Assembly (NCBI GenBank): GCA_010093705.1
Contig: MU006101.1
Coordinates: 471,614-535,613, forward strand
Source of the DNA: Patellaria atrata CBS 101060
Lineage: Eukaryota
Reading direction: 5' to 3'
DNA: 64,000 nucleotides
Under the pieces are notes generated by a model. The model was not told the origin of the DNA. It did no database searches and worked only from the letters and a program-made list of their open reading frames with translations. The translations under genes were made by a program, and so were the position numbers. Positions 36,144-44,649 of the stretch are shown piece by piece; position 1 is the first letter of the stretch; the number at the start of each line of letters is the position of its first letter.

Positions 36144-38368
36144 TTACGTAGCCTTCGGCACCTCTGGTTTCGCTGGGAGCACTCTTGCATTATCTCTCGG
36201 CCTGCTCGCACCTCTCTCGACTCTATAATGGCCTCTCCCGCTTTGTAACGTTCCTGGTTTCAGTAGATTTTTCTTCTTCTTCGGCGGGACATCGCACTTC
36301 CGGTACCACGGATTGCAGTAGCCGGTCTTGCATGCTCTTTGCATTCGGCACTCGTCTCCTATGCAACCTTCCGTACACGGTTTGCAGGTGTAGTTAGAGC
36401 ACTCCTCATCCAAGTTACAGTCAGTAGCTTTCATGCAAGGGCGAGGAGCGCAATTATCCATGGTACGTGGATCACACGTGAGGAACATGATAGGAGTGTT
36501 GGGACATGTGTGTTCCGTTGTACAGAATTGGTGAGGCGAGTCTTTGGGTAAAGTCAGTTTGGTCTTCTTACAGATCCCCTTTACGCATTTAAGTCCGGGT
36601 TGGCAGAAAGCGTTTCTATTGCACATCATGTCCTCACAACCAAGGACACACTGCTGGCAGACGTTATTCTTGCATATAAGACCCTCATGGCAATCATCGT
36701 TAGCGGAACATAGATGGTTTTCCCGGCCTAAGATTGTCTGGCCCTCGATTGGAAGGTAAGGGTTCGGATGCACATATTTGTAGACCGTGTTATTTCTTTG
36801 GTGCTTCGTGAAAGGAGATTGCTTCAAGTATTTATTCCAATCCCACTCGCTTGGTGCAGAATTGGCCTGTCCTATCAGGTCACCGAGTCGCTTCATCTCT
36901 GTGGAGTCGTGAACGTCGATTTCAACATCGCGCACATCTGGATTTTGGCTCGTGCTTGCGAATAACTGAGGAGAGATTAGCTTGGATACGCCCAGGATTT
37001 GAAAGACGTACCCAAGGTACACCACGGAGATTGATTGCGTTCGCTTGCTCCCAGATATCTGCGAATTTGCCGCTGATTCCCTTTTCACCAATGATGTAGG
37101 TAAGCGCTTCAACTAGAATGAGCTTAGTTCCTCTCGCCTTGAATGAAGTCTGACTCTGGGGACTGAGTAGGTTTGCCTTCCTAATAATTAGACGTTTTCA
37201 CTATTTCACGTGAGATTGACTCACCCAAAGTGTTCCAGCGGGCGTTTCACTCGTCGAAGGCCAGTATCTTAATCAGAGTTAGACCATTCACGGTAGGGGG
37301 TTTGCAAGATTGATGACTTACCCGTGAATACCAATAACATCAATGGCATCGCATTCTAAGAGCTGCTGAGGGAAGTTTTCATGACCACCAGGGCTGACGG
37401 GACTCGATATACCACCTGTGATGACCGCAATATTGCTTTCACCAAGGCCAGTGGAAATCTTGAGGTGCTCTGCAATATCACAAAACCAAGACATACCCAC
37501 AGGGATTGGCCATACACCTTGGAAAGGTTCGTTCTGCAAATCCACTCCCTAGAGAATATTAAAATGAGACTCTCTTTCACCGGAATAGTGGAGAATCCTT
37601 AGGATACACTGTACGTACCAGGATAGTTTCATTTAAAGTTCTCCATTTACGACCATTGAAGTTTTTCGACTCATATCCAAAAAACATAATAGTTAGACGA
37701 AGTCTATACCACTCTCGGACTATGTAGTGGTTAGTCAACGACAACATAGAGTGTCTTGGTTGATGTACTTGTCTCATTGGTGTAAAAGTCCAACCATGGT
37801 TCCCCGACAGTTTGACAGTAGACGTCGCATTTTGCGTTATTCGTTCCACGAAGTGCATGAACATCATGCGGCGCAATTATGACCTTCGTTTTCCCTGGGA
37901 GAAGTTAGACTAATTCATGGAACATTGACCATCGATATGACATACCTTTACTGATCCGGTGAATGGCTGCTAGGGTATCGTCAAAGCGATCTAGAGATAC
38001 CTGATCGAAGGTATGTAGGTAAAATTCGGGCTACCTTCGATTAGTATGGCCATCATACTATCAGATCTTTATGCAAACCCACATCAGGATATTTTTCATT
38101 TCCAGTTACTTCATGTTGAAAAAGCACTATTAGTAGTGATGGTTGACCGCCAGACATGTCAGGACTAACTCATTAATCGTATTACGCTGACATTTGCATT
38201 CACAAGCTCTGTAATGGTAGCATCGCGTTCTGTAGGTTCTAGAAACGGTAGACTGAAGTGATTTACACCTGCGAATGAATGATGGGGCGCAGACTTTGAA
38301 AGTGCATGGATTTTAAGCGTAAAACTTAAAATTGAAATGATAATAAAAAAAACGGAATTTGAAAACAT
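36144..38368 (-). CDS. Secreted GH5-like (clan A TIM-barrel) protein with C-terminal cysteine-rich repeats, multi-exon
   Basis: Signal peptide MFSNSVFFIIISILSFTLKIHA. Motifs SFAGVN, VIRL, KVIIAPHD, GVDLQNEPF (acid/base Glu), DVIGIHGY and KLILVEAL. About 7 short introns splice in frame. The tail is CxxxxxCxxGLxCxxxxC repeats. Confidence 0.8.
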
Positions 38369-38938: not shown

Positions 38939-40511
38939 ATGGTTCTAGAGCTCCATATATGGGGTCCAGCATTCGGCCTCCCCTCCATTGACCCCGAATG
39001 CACCGCTACAGTTGCATACCTCAAACACTGTCTTCCAGAGGAACAATGGATACTTATAGCAGACCACGATCCTTCCGTATCTCCAAATAGTAAGACTCAG
39101 ATAGGATACAGAGAAGGAGAAGGAGAAATAGTCTGACGTATTTGCTCTTCTAGGAGAATTCCCCGCCCTCCTCCACAATTCCACCTGGATAGCTGGCTTC
39201 CACACCATAACTCGATACCTGCGCCAGCAGCTATATCGTGACATAGACGCAAGACTAAGCTCTCAACAGCGTGCAGACTCTATTGCGTAGGTTACAAAAT
39301 GTCGTGTCAAATTGGATCAATGTTACTAAGAGGTTCTATATAGTTTTTCGACCCTTCTTAGTCACTCCGCTCTTCCTCTCCTATCCCTATCCCTCTATAC
39401 CTCCTTCCAGAACTACTACCATATCACTCGACCTGCATTCACCTCAATACTGCCATGGCACGCCAACTATTCTGTACCTCCAGCTCGCCGTGAAGTTGCA
39501 AAAGCTGTGACTCAGCACTTTGGTTTCTCAGGCCTAGATATTGACGACGTTCACGAGTCTACTCTCGCTGGTGGAAACACTAGTATTAGCGGGAGTTATG
39601 AATCAGCGAAAGCAGTGGCGGGTATACCAACCGGTAACGGTACTAATTCTAGACCGAATGTGTTACCATTAGGATTCAATAAATCCATCAAAAAAATTCT
39701 AAACAAGCCGGAGTATGCTGCAAGGTTCCGCCTCGATGCACTCACAAAAGAGTGCCTACAACCCTTGGATGATCTACTGGGAGAGAAAAGTTACCTCCTC
39801 ACAGATGGTGCCAAGGGACCTTCCAGTCTAGATTGTCTAGCTTTTGGATACCTTAGCCTAATGCTCTACCCTGACTTCCCTCAGGCATGGCTCAGAGAAG
39901 GCTTCGATAAATATCCTCGCCTCCAAGACTACGTCCACAGAATGCGAGATGAACTCGTTGGCGGCAACACTGTAGTTGCAGATGTCATGGCTCTACAACA
40001 CTCCACTTCTCCAGAATCTCACAACCTGAACCTCCCATGGCACCCACGGGTACCTGAACACCCAATAGGCGTCGCTCAAAACGTCGCCACTTCCATCCTT
40101 TCTGCCCTTCCGCTGACTTCTCACTTCGCTCGACCCTCTATCATTCCTGGCATTGATGTTCCCGAAACCTCAACTGACGCTATGCGGGCCAACACTCCTT
40201 CCAGCCCTCTCCTTACCCCTTTCCTTGCACTCTCTACAATTCTGCTCGCTTTTGTTAGCAGCATATCATACCTTTCTCTCAACAGAGATCCCCGTTCTGA
40301 AGATGACTACGTCTTCTTCTCCAATACAGAAGCAGCGCGGCGAAATCGCGCGCAGAGCTTTGGCGAGGCTGGTGGATTCATGGCTGCGTTGGGAAATCAG
40401 ATGAGAGTGAATTCGGGGTTGGTTGGGGACCAGGGGCGAGAACAGGAGCGAGTAGGTGGAGCCCCGGTTGTGGAGGTTGATGTTGAGGTTAGGGAGAAGC
40501 CGGGACTGTAG
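38939..40511 (+). CDS. SAM37: Mitochondrial outer-membrane SAM complex subunit Sam37/metaxin
   Basis: Tom37/metaxin N-terminus MVLELHIWGPAFGLPSIDPECTATVAYL; GST-C-like PSSLDCLAFGYLSLML; C-terminal TM. Two introns splice in frame. Confidence 0.88.
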
Positions 40512-41018
40512 AACGGCTTCGGACTATGCGAATCACGAAATACTTCTGGACTATAAAGCTCAGAAGATCAGAAAGTAGGATCCGTATTGCTTTTTGTGTT
40601 GATTTGTTTGTAGATATGTTGTCTCTGGATACTCCTGTAAAAGTAGGGATTTCTCCTTGATTATGACATAATGAGCCACATATCATAAATTTTTGCCACT
40701 TATCCCTCCCCTTCTTCCTTGTGAATCCCTTTTCCTAGTCCAGTCTTAAGCATGAGAGTAATTGTGTGGACTTTACTTATTCTTTTGCAACTCTATATTC
40801 TCCAGTAGTTAGGTAGAAAATACATCACATTGACACTGAGTGTTAGCACTCGATCCGCTTCTGTTAGTCAAAACAACAAATCTCAACGACCTCGCAAGAG
40901 ATACATGGGTAGATGACAAAAAAATAATAACCCCATCCAGCCCTTGCAGCAAGTGAAGAATCAAAAGATAATAAAGTGGAAAACTAAATCGAGCAAGAAT
41001 AAATAAAAAAAAAAAAAG

Positions 41019-41195
41019 AAAAAAAGAGGCAAAACAGTTCCTACCCACTCCCCACGGGAAACCCCCATGGAGCGTTGGGGTACTTCTCTGCTTGAGGCAT
41101 TATCCCCCTTCTAAGGTTCGACCTCTGGACCAGTTGGCTCTAGCCTGATCGGTGTGGTAGGGATTTCCTACCACTAGGCCATAGATCACTGGGAT
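41019..41195 (-). ncRNA. Candidate structured non-coding RNA with Pol III-type signals (family not recognised)
   Basis: A-box TGGCCTAGTGG (41171-41181), B-box-like GGTCGAACC (41115-41123), upstream AATAAAT, and downstream T4/T7/T13 runs. Stems: CCAGT/ACTGG, GATC/GATC, GTGGTAGG/CCTACCAC, GGC-TAGA-GCC, and a long 3' hairpin (41042-41082) with G-U pairs on the minus strand. Confidence 0.55.
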
Positions 41196-41546
41196 ATAGA
41201 AAGAAGTCACAGTTCATTTATTGATACGCTGTAAATGGAAGGAACGTGTTTAGGGGGTAGCTTGGCGGAGTATATGTATCTTTTTTGTCCGTTTGACTGA
41301 AAGGACGTCATGTGGAAGCTTCTATTGGGGGACGAGACTCGATAGATTTGGTATTCAGGCTACGAAATAAGGGAAATCTTATTCATGGGAGATCTGGGTC
41401 TTTTATTTCTATGTCACTTGGGAGTCATGAACAAGTAATGTGTCTTATTTATTAACGTATGTCTTACAAAGTCCATCTCAGCGTCTGCATTTATATCCTA
41501 CATATGATACACAAGGAAGAGAAACCTTGTATCTAATCAGTCCATC

Positions 41547-44500
41547 CTATTCCATATCCTTAACTACCTCCTCACACCTTCCACACAGCGTCTCCTTCTT
41601 CTGCGCAACACGTCTCCAACACCTTGGACACTTCTCACCATGTGCCCGCATCACAACCACCACTCCATGTACTCCATTTACGACGAATTCCTTTTCGTAA
41701 TTCCAGAGGGGGATTCTCCTCCCCACACATTCTGACCCCGTCACGACCTGAACTGCACTGACAACAAAGATGCCCGCTAACTCTTCCTCCATGCGCTTGC
41801 ATAGCACCTCGGCCACTACCTCGCTTTCCTTCATTCTCGGTAGGAGGATCAAAACATCACTCTCCAACCCCCCACCCAACCCGTTCTCCGCTCTCGCCTC
41901 TTCCTGCAGCGCCTTGATCACTTTATCAACTTTCAACACAACATCTAACCTCTGTAGCACACTCTCTCCACCGTACTCAAAAGGGCGCCAGATGCTTCTC
42001 ATAGGATTCCACTCCTCTCCCTCTTCACTCTTCCTAGATACTTTGAGCTGCGGAGAGGCATGCTCCCACACCTCTTCGATGAGCAGAGGACACACGGGCG
42101 CGAGCATCTGAAGTAATTCGGTGAATACATGATAGAGAACGGTTTGTGCGGCAAGGCGGTCGGAAGTGGAACCAGTGTAGAGTCGGTCTTTTGCGGACTC
42201 GAAGTAGAATGCGGAAAGGGGACCTGCGAGGTATTTCTGCAGAGTCGTCGTGACTGTGGGGAAATTGTATGATTGATATGCTATATGGGTCGCTTGGGAT
42301 GCGTAGGCGAGCTGGGCGAGAGCGAGACGGTCGATGAGGAGTTTGGGCTCGGGGATGGAGGAAGATCCGAATGGCGATAGAGGGGCGTAGTCTGAAAGCA
42401 CTCCGAGGAGCCATTTGAAGGTGACGCGGTATTTGTGAAGAGCAGTATTGACGGCCTGGAGGACAGGTTGGCCGATTGCGACGTCGCGCGTGTAGTCGCT
42501 AGATGCGACCCAGAGACGCAGAGCATCTGCACCCATGGCATCGTAGACAGGTTTATTAGGATCGGCAGCGGGGGGTTTCCTTTTCCCTTTGCGTTCTTCG
42601 GTTTTGAGGGGTGGGAGTAAAGTTCCATTTATGATTTCATGGGGTGCGATTACGTTTCCCAAACTTTTGCTCATTTTGCGACCGTCTTGGTCGAGAGTGA
42701 AGCCGTGCGTAATGAGTGTTTTGAAAGGCGCTTTCATGGGCCCGCATGCTTTCGTTGTAGCTGCTTGATGCGCTATATGCGTCAATAACGATGACTGGAA
42801 CCAACCTCTATGCTGATCAGTCCCCTCAAGATAGACGTCCGCAAGTGCAGTGTCTTGCCTCTTTTCAAGGCCGGTCCAGCTCGTGCCGCTATCAAACCAT
42901 ACATCCATAGTATCTTTGCCACGAACATACGTTCCCTCCAAACCGGGAGCAACCCATGCGGGATCATCTTCGGCATCGGTCCACCAAGCATTGATTCCTC
43001 GCTCTTCGACCACTTTCATAACATGACTGATTGTATCAGCAGTCATGACAGCTTGGGGGCATTTAGTGTCGGTTCGATACAGCGCAGGAATAGGGACGCC
43101 CCAAGCTCTTTGACGAGAAACGCACCACTGACTCCGCGCTTGGATAAAGCTCTCTAACCTCGACCTACCAGTTTCAGGGATAAATGTTACATCTTCGAGT
43201 GCGTTCAATGCGTCATCTTTGATGGACTCAACGTCAGCAAACCACTGCTCTGTTGCTCTGACGATAACGGGCTGCTTAGTCCGCCAATCAACTGGGTATT
43301 TATGGGTGACTTCGTGGATATGGACAACTTGGTCCTCTAGACGATCTAGTACGGCTTTCGACCCATCTGTCTGAACGGATAAGCCTTTCAGTAGGTCTGG
43401 CTCATCAGGAAGAGCTAGTTCAGTAAAACAACCTTGGTCATCTACTGGAGCGAACGCAGGTATAGATAGCTTTGTACAGACGTTATAATCGTCCATGCCA
43501 TGCCCTGGTGCAAAGTGTACCAGTCCTGATCCTGAAGCGGACGACACAAAGTCCGCATGGATGATGGGCTGAGGGGTAGCAGATCTACCTTGAAGAGGAT
43601 TGATATACTTCGATTTTCCAGTTAGCAAGGATCCCGAAAATTCACCATGAACAACTCTGACGCTATCTTCCCCAAGGAGAGATCTCAGGTGTCCTATGCG
43701 TGAAGTAGCGACAATGACGTTTCTCTTTGGCCATCGCGCGGTTCTTCCTAATTTAAGGGTAACAATAGTATAGCTCATCGATTCATGAACAGCAATAGCT
43801 TTATTGGCTGGTAAAGTCCATGGCGTCGTCGTCCAGATGAGAGCAGACAGTGAGCCATCAGTATCCCCTTTGGTGATTGTTTCCGGCCACTCTGTCAACT
43901 CAAAGCTCACAAAAGCGGCAGTACTCTTGTGATTTTCATCGTACTCGAGCTCTGCCTCTGCAAGCGCCGTACCGGAAGACGGTGACCAGTATACCGGCTT
44001 ATACTGTCGGTATATCAAACCTGTAATCCATCAGTCTCTCTACAAAAGCCCCTTATAGTACCGTCGGACGAACCGCACCCTTCGCAACCATCTCTCTGAA
44101 GACTCCCAACTGCCTCATCTCAAACCCCTTCTCCATAGTCCTATACGCATTATCCCAGTCCCCAATAATGCCCCATTCCCTAAACCCCCTCTTCTGACTC
44201 TCCACCGTCTCCGCCGCCAATCGTCCCGCAGCCTCTCTAATCCTGACCGCTCTCTCCCTCCCGCTCTGGTCATCCAGCGCCTCTGTCAGCTTTCCCTCCT
44301 CCTTCATCTTTTGCACCGCCTTCACCTCAATAGGTAATCCATGGCAATCCCACCCAGGTACATACTCCACTCTCTTCCCCTGTCCCATCCAAAACCGACA
44401 CACCAAATCTTTCAGCACCTTATTCATCGCATGTCCAATGTGGAGTGGTCCATTGGCATACGGCGGGCCATCGTGCAGGACAAATTTCTCGGCATCGCGA

Positions 44501-44649
44501 CGATGGGTGTGTTGCCAAGCGTAGAGCTCGTCGGTGCATCGGTGGAGGAGCGGTGGATTGGGGAAAGAGGGCCGCGGGGGAAAGGAGGATTTGGGGAGCT
44601 TCAGGGTGCTAGAGTAGAGCGCGCGGAGGGGTAGGGAGGGTCGAGGCAT
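41547..44649 (-). CDS. ISM1: Mitochondrial isoleucyl-tRNA synthetase (bacterial type), 2 exons
   Basis: LHDGPPYANGPLHIGH, GWDCHGLPIE, WTTTPWTLP, EGTDQHRGWFQSSLL, KMSKS and the C-terminal zinc knuckle CPRCW...CGRC. Intron 44021-44078. Confidence 0.95.

Follow-up and report, generated by a model that had tools for sequence, protein, structure and literature searches.

A dispersed family of predicted RNA polymerase III genes of tRNA origin in Patellaria atrata, with one branch carried by a MITE

The locus and the window copy of the element

The window analysed here is a stretch of 64,000 nt from Patellaria atrata CBS 101060 (contig MU006101.1, assembly GCA_010093705.1), and all coordinates are positions in it. 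The element lies between two convergent genes, one for a SAM37/metaxin-like protein and one for a class I (I/L/M/V) aminoacyl-tRNA synthetase, presumably ISM1-like, as it had been labelled in a sequence-only reading of this DNA (Table 1). The stop of the synthetase gene is located 350 nt upstream of the predicted RNA, on the same strand. A functional tie to this neighbour was considered, and the proximity is likely due to chance, since the sister locus L018 has unrelated neighbours; it shares no coding sequence with the window. Elsewhere in the window, the minus strand contains a cysteine-rich open frame of 250 aa at 36144-36896 with no Pfam match, and two motifs resembling branch points and 3' splice sites at 40870-40836, just outside the segment that L018 also has; no reading frame is obvious there, and the motifs may come from a spliced non-coding or 3' UTR transcript.

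Table 1. Coordinates of the features at the locus; helices are given as paired strands
Feature	Position	Strand	Remark
SAM37/metaxin-like gene	38939..40511	+	PF10568 (E 1.7e-10) and PF17171 (E 3.1e-14), Tom37 and GST_C; neighbour, outside the element
Segment of ~450 bp	40881..41330	-	outer flanks common to the window and resident locus L018 (G000:C11)
Part resembling MITE-borne copies	41003..41282	-	identity to L003 0.75-0.93 per 40-nt bin
Upstream box containing CACGT	41241..41255	-	also in MITE-borne copies
TATA-like site	41216..41226	-	~30 nt upstream of predicted start
AATAAAT	41222-41216	-	
Predicted Pol III transcript, 167 nt	41031..41197	-	from family alignment; ends at first T4
5' rod	41128..41192	-	nested helices P1, P2 and P3
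A box	41171..41181	-	doubles as 5' strands of P2 and P3
Helix P2	41181-41176/41146-41141	-	
Helix P3	41174-41167/41161-41154	-	bulge 41153-41147 beside it
B box	41114..41124	-	variant typical of MITE-borne copies
Optional middle hairpin P4a	41094..41108	-	weak in window copy
3' domain	41032..41093	-	basal helix (pair probabilities 0.72-0.99), internal loop, extended apical stem
Basal helix of 3' domain	41093-41088/41037-41032	-	
Loop-E-like internal loop	AGUA 41084-41081, GAA 41040-41038	-	2-nt insertion disturbs register
TTTTGC terminator	41029..41034	-	contains T4 (41034-41031); backup runs T7 (41025-41019) and T13 (41017-41005) behind
Class I (I/L/M/V) aminoacyl-tRNA synthetase gene	41547..44649	-	PF00133, PF08264, ORFs

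Pol III promoter and terminator architecture had been proposed for the minus strand of a GC-rich island at this site. The motifs named (AATAAAT, the A box, the B-box-like sequence and the three T runs) are where they had been placed, and GC content is 0.51-0.57 inside the island and 0.28-0.45 in adjacent bins. The minus strand is also preferred by folding energy (MFE -66.8 vs -55.7 for the reverse complement), in agreement with the boxes and T runs. In Pol III genes generally, TFIIIC binds the A and B boxes and TFIIIB assembles on a TATA-like site. In the window copy, the A box, B box and oligo-T follow one another in order, with the qualification that the B box is a variant form, and the feature has, by sequence, the layout of a type 2 Pol III gene. 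The transcript start was placed 16 nt 5' of the A box, and a conserved pyrimidine run and then CATA precede helix P1. The predicted RNA was taken to run from 41197 to 41031 because TTTT followed by G is the stop form common after this genome's own tRNA genes; among 30 of these, 19 have a first T run of exactly four, and in 23 that run is followed by G. These runs are shorter than in budding yeast, which has five to six T.

The long 3' hairpin that had been drawn by eye is well supported by the folding ensemble, with pair probabilities mostly 0.9-1.0, a low end of ~0.72-0.76 and one closing pair at 0.42. The 5' three-way junction drawn with it did not hold up, since its first GAUC is present in only 2/21 aligned copies, its GGC-UAGA-GCC hairpin is unconserved, and the ensemble predicts for this part nested helices that form a rod. 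P1 is reduced to 4-5 bp in the window copy vs 8 bp in resident copies, P3 bears one compensatory pair (G-C to A-U), and a second optional hairpin, P4b, is missing. Overall, the A box of the window copy is perfect, and its terminator, TATA-like site and three helices (P2, P3 and the basal one of the 3' domain) are preserved; the damage consists of the variant B box, the eroded P1 and the 2-nt insertion beside the loop motif. Its folding energy was mildly unusual relative to shuffles (z -1.5 and z -2.05 in two tests), and because the fold beats shuffles so modestly, the single copy is insufficient as a case. Reads over 39000-44400 from two runs of one sample had flat depth and zero intron joints, indicating that the runs are DNA, possibly the assembly's own source, with no bearing on expression.

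A dispersed family and its tRNA-derived head

When the genome was searched with DNA queries, as had been proposed, the element, until then treated as one locus, proved to be multi-copy, with at least 45 dispersed loci. The first search returned 22 dispersed matches, including the window copy, at 70-88% identity; one further copy was located beside a transposon end, and searches with divergent copies brought in 14, 2 and 6 more loci. The family was mapped with DNA queries alone and every new divergent query gained loci, so that 45 is a lower bound and the search is unsaturated. A covariance model built from 21 of the 45 loci that it scores gave scores at E 0.1 to 45/45 loci and to 0/10 control loci, which were 5S, tRNA, cargo-free MITEs and one metagenome match. 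This last was the only match in an exact-match scan of metagenome contigs with a narrow pattern; by eye it lies inside a bacterial hydrolase frame, and the family model gave it no score. A scan of viral contigs with one narrow exact-match pattern returned 0 matches.

In a tree of 40 full-length copies, we found a group C (n=8, support 100/99), a loose group A (n=12), and a group B (n=20) that contains the window copy and has support of 84/70 in the 40-row tree and 99/95 in a 34-row tree. Partial copies (L044, L090, L097, L100 and L102) were excluded from the trees and from motif counts. Truncation or deletion affects four of the transposon-free copies (L090, L097, L100 and L102), of which two, L097 and L100, are 5'-truncated. 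Short T-rich units in tandem directly follow the terminator in L011, L014, L016 and L112, and L016 also has a long G-rich insertion within the middle hairpin.

The sequence-only reading found by eye no match to a tRNA cloverleaf, 5S, U1-U6, SRP, RNase P/MRP or a C/D snoRNA, and database scans agreed. No family reached the gathering threshold of Rfam 15 in the whole 64-kb window, a permissive Rfam scan of 40500-41600 gave chance matches only (E 5.7 and 9.9), as did scans of 12 further copies (best E 2.4), and neither ARAGORN (0 genes in the window, tRNA in 0/16 other copies) nor the Rfam tRNA model detected a cloverleaf. In literature listings, no description of the RNA family was found, and the supplement alignments of PMC8216456 lay outside that comparison. 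It is very improbable, in our estimate, that the family is a diverged known RNA (5S, SRP, U6, vault, Y or 7SK) or a published fungal motif missing from the catalogues, such as 'intergenic structure 2'. There is a superficial likeness to 5S loop E and to the SRP B-box region, but canonical 5S (13 matches), SRP (1) and U6 (2) sequences are present elsewhere in the genome. Intergenic structure 2 is described as 144 nt long, Pezizomycotina-wide and of unassigned role (Gao et al., PMC8216456), and the 223 sequences from 207 species reported there amount to about one per genome, which sets it apart from the present family by description only. Mimicry of 5S and ancestry from SRP were examined separately in 14 copies and rejected (5S similarity z ≤ 3.1, SRP z ≤ 2.2).

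All groups have in common a TATA-like site ~45 nt upstream of the A box, the A and B boxes, and a 3' end of TTTT, mostly followed by G. In 14 transposon-free copies, positions -45..-41 relative to the A box have an A+T fraction of 0.89. CACGT was found in 12/25 family upstream regions, compared with 1/30 tRNA genes and 64/720 background pieces, counts that could be explained by the shared ancestry of the copies. In place of a cloverleaf, the head has a rod closed by P1, in which the 5' end is paired with the old T-stem strand. One or two GC-rich optional hairpins, gained and lost as whole units, lie 3' of the B box, and these are followed by a near-invariant 3' domain. From its base, this domain comprises a helix of 5 bp, a 5x3 internal loop in which AUGUA or AAGUA faces GAA, and a short apical stem; we take the loop to be a loop-E/bulged-G motif.

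A tRNA origin of the head had been among the earlier suggestions, and it is supported by a profile of 14 resident (transposon-free) copies, which matched one of the genome's own tRNA genes, L073, at 19.9 bits, with 8.6 for the next best and at most 0.2 for shuffled controls, in a comparison that took in 30 of the 39 own tRNA matches. By eye, L073 is an intron-containing Ala(AGC) gene with a G3.U70 pair, although ARAGORN labelled it as Ser; by eye, group C heads also resemble Gly and Lys genes.

The same anatomy bears on the earlier suggestion of a milRNA precursor, in which a tRNA-like leader and a hairpin would be cut by RNase Z and Dicer into microRNA-like RNAs. Pol III is reported to make the main Neurospora milRNAs, and milR-4 to arise through RNase Z from the precursor of a tRNA-Ala (PMC3547838); in P. 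atrata, resident copies differ fairly little in the 3' arm of their last hairpin, and the stem of the window copy is long. However, milR-4 as described there keeps an intact tRNA, whereas this family offers RNase Z no cloverleaf and its P1 sequesters the T-stem strand. In addition, the resident 3' stem is ~15 bp around the 5x3 loop, and its apical half varies, with compensation, while the internal-loop motif is kept, unlike a guide whose function depends on sequence. We consider this origin a poor fit and unlikely.

Conservation of structure and carriage by a MITE

Of the 325 cells scored over 14 transposon-free copies, 93.5% are paired. P1 is paired in 109/112 cells, with changes that step via G.U intermediates, the basal 3' helix in 70/70, and the next four pairs in 50/56. 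In the MAFFT alignment, double-sided changes were found in 6/24 pairs, a number equalled in 0/500 shuffles and compared with 0-2 in slid registers. Neutral simulation on the tree, from which the misaligned copy L094 was omitted, gave 48.3±8.5 broken cells vs 9/208 observed, and 3.3 compensatory cells vs 8 observed (P 0.04); the simulation uses one rate and branch lengths that include indel-rich columns, and so overstates neutral breakage. Several compensatory changes are unique to single copies (L099, L092 and L094), and helix P3 has 0 compensatory cells in 9 rows. Part of the conservation reflects promoter constraint, because P1, P2 and P3 overlap promoter boxes, and the recovery of copies by sequence similarity biases the set to conserved ones.

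The covariation signal is limited to the transposon-free copies. A first alignment of 21 copies, mostly MITE-borne, had 8 covarying pairs vs 6-10 in slid controls, and covariation tests of group B gave no signal. The MITE-borne copies also fall under simulated breakage (38/402 vs 57.9±11.8, P 0.04), so that group B has a mild deficit of breaks only (P 0.02-0.04). The two sets also differ in motifs, using motif patterns that were picked after the sequences had been viewed. The A box is intact in 19/20 transposon-free vs 6/14 MITE-borne copies, and the same numbers hold for a 3' end with intact T4; the cUNCGg loop that caps the apical stem is present in 14/20 vs 0/14, and the B box is of canonical type in 19/20 transposon-free copies and of variant type in 11/14 MITE-borne copies. 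Despite their better-kept motifs, the end branches of transposon-free copies are equal or longer. We conclude that the structure appears to be under selection in transposon-free copies, and that MITE-borne copies are decaying; the window copy sits in the decaying clade, among its more eroded members.

Another explanation of this conservation is that the DNA matters and not the RNA, with the copies serving as TFIIIC/Pol III chromatin barriers or organisers, or being tolerated Pol III repeats with a structure that protects the RNA from decay. The best-kept parts are indeed the promoter boxes and terminator, and the middle of the RNA is modular. A and B boxes alone would suffice for TFIIIC binding, but the 3' hairpin lies outside the promoter and is nevertheless near invariant, with RNA-specific tetraloops and compensatory pairs, and we give this explanation a low probability.

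Among the first 22 copies, 14 have at least one inverted-repeat arm, and all 14 belong to group B; in five copies both arms are present, at a distance of 322-368 bp. The terminal inverted-repeat motif had 26 genome matches vs 0 for a control, and 11 of the 12 best adjoin RNA copies. The genome also contains a cargo-free MITE family of 455-962 bp (L033, L035, L036, L040, L045, L047 and L048) with nearly the same inverted repeats. These sisters have target duplications of 8-9 bp, matching at 7/8 or better in 5/7, with one at 9/9, and among the RNA-bearing elements with two arms, 1/5 has a duplication of 7/8 and another has an offset repeat. The group B copy L021 is preceded by a degenerate transposon arm, and a separate MITE free of cargo is inserted just downstream of it. 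MITEs and Pack-type DNA transposons are short non-coding elements with terminal inverted repeats that can carry host fragments. The present elements are like them in their inverted repeats and in having, in the same genome, cargo-free sisters with 8-9 bp target duplications, and differ in that a whole Pol III gene plus its upstream promoter is carried and that the window copy has no inverted repeats. In literature listings, no MITE that had taken up an entire Pol III gene was found.

The mode of spread bears on the suggestion of a SINE head, which was right about the tRNA origin. On a SINE reading, the family would be an ancient SINE of tRNA origin that ends in a T-rich tail, its 3' hairpin would be a handle for a LINE reverse transcriptase, its structure would be kept in source copies only, and one copy would later have been captured by the MITE. 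The tRNA head, unrelated body and T-rich, sometimes tandem tail are of this type, two copies are 5'-truncated, and the genome contains 2 non-LTR-type endonuclease matches, at G000:C1:2767841 and C20:20977. Furthermore, tRNA-derived SINE RNAs typically refold to stem-loops (PMC2408557, as reported there), and fungal tRNA SINEs of 140-493 bp and low copy number are on record (PMC5063351). However, homology does not run from transcription start to tail, as it would in a SINE: copy pairs share flanks upstream to -141 and downstream to +143, on both sides of the unit, with the TATA-like site at a fixed distance. A direct repeat of at least 8 nt surrounds the RNA unit in 1/23 copies only, and the 22/23 without one are a weak argument, as old duplications could have decayed. 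The DNA upstream of the two truncated copies contains, by eye, host genes and no reverse transcriptase, queries with the 3' domain had no family match at either endonuclease locus, and the single-copy compensatory changes would be unexpected in dead SINE copies. Because flanks are shared beyond both start and terminator, we favour duplication of gene plus promoter at the DNA level over retroposition, and regard a SINE, although the main rival, as rather doubtful.

The window copy is a mosaic, in which an RNA of the MITE-borne type stands between flanks of the resident type. The central part is similar to MITE-borne copies, with an identity of 0.45-0.57 to L018 in its 3' half, and the outer flanks are shared with L018 on both sides (Table 1); no MITE inverted repeats were found within 1.5 kb with up to 4 substitutions allowed. 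The locus may have been the donor of the MITE cargo, or a resident locus overwritten by gene conversion, and we judge these to be about evenly balanced. A long end branch and unstarred support for the surrounding subgroup suit the donor reading, and the nested position of the copy in the tree suits conversion. A second possible mosaic is L095, which is transposon-free with resident-type upstream DNA, yet nests among MITE-borne copies. By eye, a pogo/Fot1-like transposase fragment (L085) lies upstream of L018 and a short-chain dehydrogenase-like gene downstream.

Proposed explanation and relation to known systems

Of the three identities suggested earlier, a novel Pol III RNA fits best, as a family of dozens of loci and not as one tied to SAM37 and ISM1. 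The family is real, uncatalogued and bigger than first seen, and appears to belong to the tRNA-derived Pol III RNAs. The explanation that we prefer, with slightly better than even confidence, is a host-selected family of Pol III RNAs with a putative protein-binding hairpin at the 3' end, one member of which was captured by a DNA transposon. In this explanation, the family would have been born from a tRNA gene and would now be held by selection as structured RNAs, with Pol III making an RNA of 150-180 nt that ends in UUU-OH. The 5' rod would house the promoter and mask the tRNA shape from processing enzymes, and the putative binding site would be the 3' hairpin together with the loop-E-like motif and the U tail. 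Since conservation lies in a loop of 3D type and in helix geometry, and not in a long pairing sequence, the RNA would probably act by binding protein rather than by base-pairing; as a guess, the partner would most plausibly be a La/LARP7-type or double-stranded-RNA-binding protein, giving an abundant scaffold or decoy RNP. The genes would have multiplied as DNA segments including their flanks, and one member, with ~60-80 bp of upstream DNA, would have been captured by the MITE, which would have carried it to 14 sites or more; there it would be decaying.

We hold more tentatively a stronger version, which we think possible but clearly short of even: that these RNAs form a new abundant class of Pol III RNA, tRNA-born, with dozens of dispersed genes and selected subfamilies, and with a dedicated RNP via the loop-E-like hairpin. 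Such RNAs might exert control of translation or RNA silencing in the manner of 7SK, BC1 or snaR, and the transposon may have gained from capturing one.

In rodent BC1 and the herpesvirus tRNA-miRNA RNAs, which are made by Pol III, hairpins and a U-tail come after a 5' part of tRNA origin. BC1 has one master gene, whose middle is A-rich, and the viral RNAs retain a cloverleaf that can be cleaved, a structure lacking in the present family. In its predicted working, the family is closest to snaR, RUF70 and the GC-rich RNAs of Plasmodium, which are lineage-specific multi-copy Pol III RNAs. The snaR genes of great apes are described as lineage-restricted, multi-copy and of SINE-type ancestry, having spread mostly by DNA duplication, and their RNAs bind the protein NF90 and ribosomes (PMC3045588); by that account snaR derives from Alu/7SL, whereas the present family is tRNA-derived and fungal, with far more diverged copies and one branch in a MITE. 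RUF70 of Yarrowia lipolytica is reported to have no promoter of its own and to be cut from an intact tRNA-Trp (PMC2566860), unlike the tRNA part here, which is refolded, has ceased to be a tRNA and remains attached to the body. As described in PMC5175341, the GC-rich ncRNA of Plasmodium falciparum resembles the family in being dispersed and GC-rich with A and B boxes, a conserved stem, a variable head and structural classes, a likeness by description only; it is tied to var gene clusters, and the tRNA remnant and transposon carriage found here are not part of the description drawn on. AfuSINE2, MgSINE and plant SB1 also have, in the accounts used, a tRNA head with A and B boxes, an unrelated body, stem-loop refolding and tens of copies, and SB1 RNA binds a protein of the La/LARP7 or double-stranded-RNA-binding kind (PMC5063351, PMC2408557); in contrast to these SINEs, the present family has a direct repeat of at least 8 nt around the RNA unit in 1/23 copies only, flanks shared on both sides, a retained TATA-like site and structure apparently selected per locus. 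The family is a member of none of the three systems that it most resembles.

The usual list of fungal Pol III genes comprises tRNA, 5S, U6, SRP and few others. Quick searches of this genome returned at least 39 tRNA and at least 13 5S matches, compared with at least 45 copies of the family, ~20 of them apparently intact. If structure is selected copy by copy, a family of this size would be a major unannotated Pol III product, and would provide a natural experiment in which selected resident genes can be compared with transposon-borne, decaying copies of the same RNA. Such families would be missed by repeat-masking or single-copy screens, and others may hide in fungal genomes.

Other Pol III genes were observed in the course of these searches. 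The 5S genes (13 matches) are dispersed and of more than one sequence type (L049-L054), and L049 and L052 share flanks, indicating a recent duplication. One U6 match, L104 (G000:C1:639983), is full-length and looks degenerate around the ACAGAGA box; the other (G000:C1:675328) spans model positions 1-63 only, and may be an intron-split gene.
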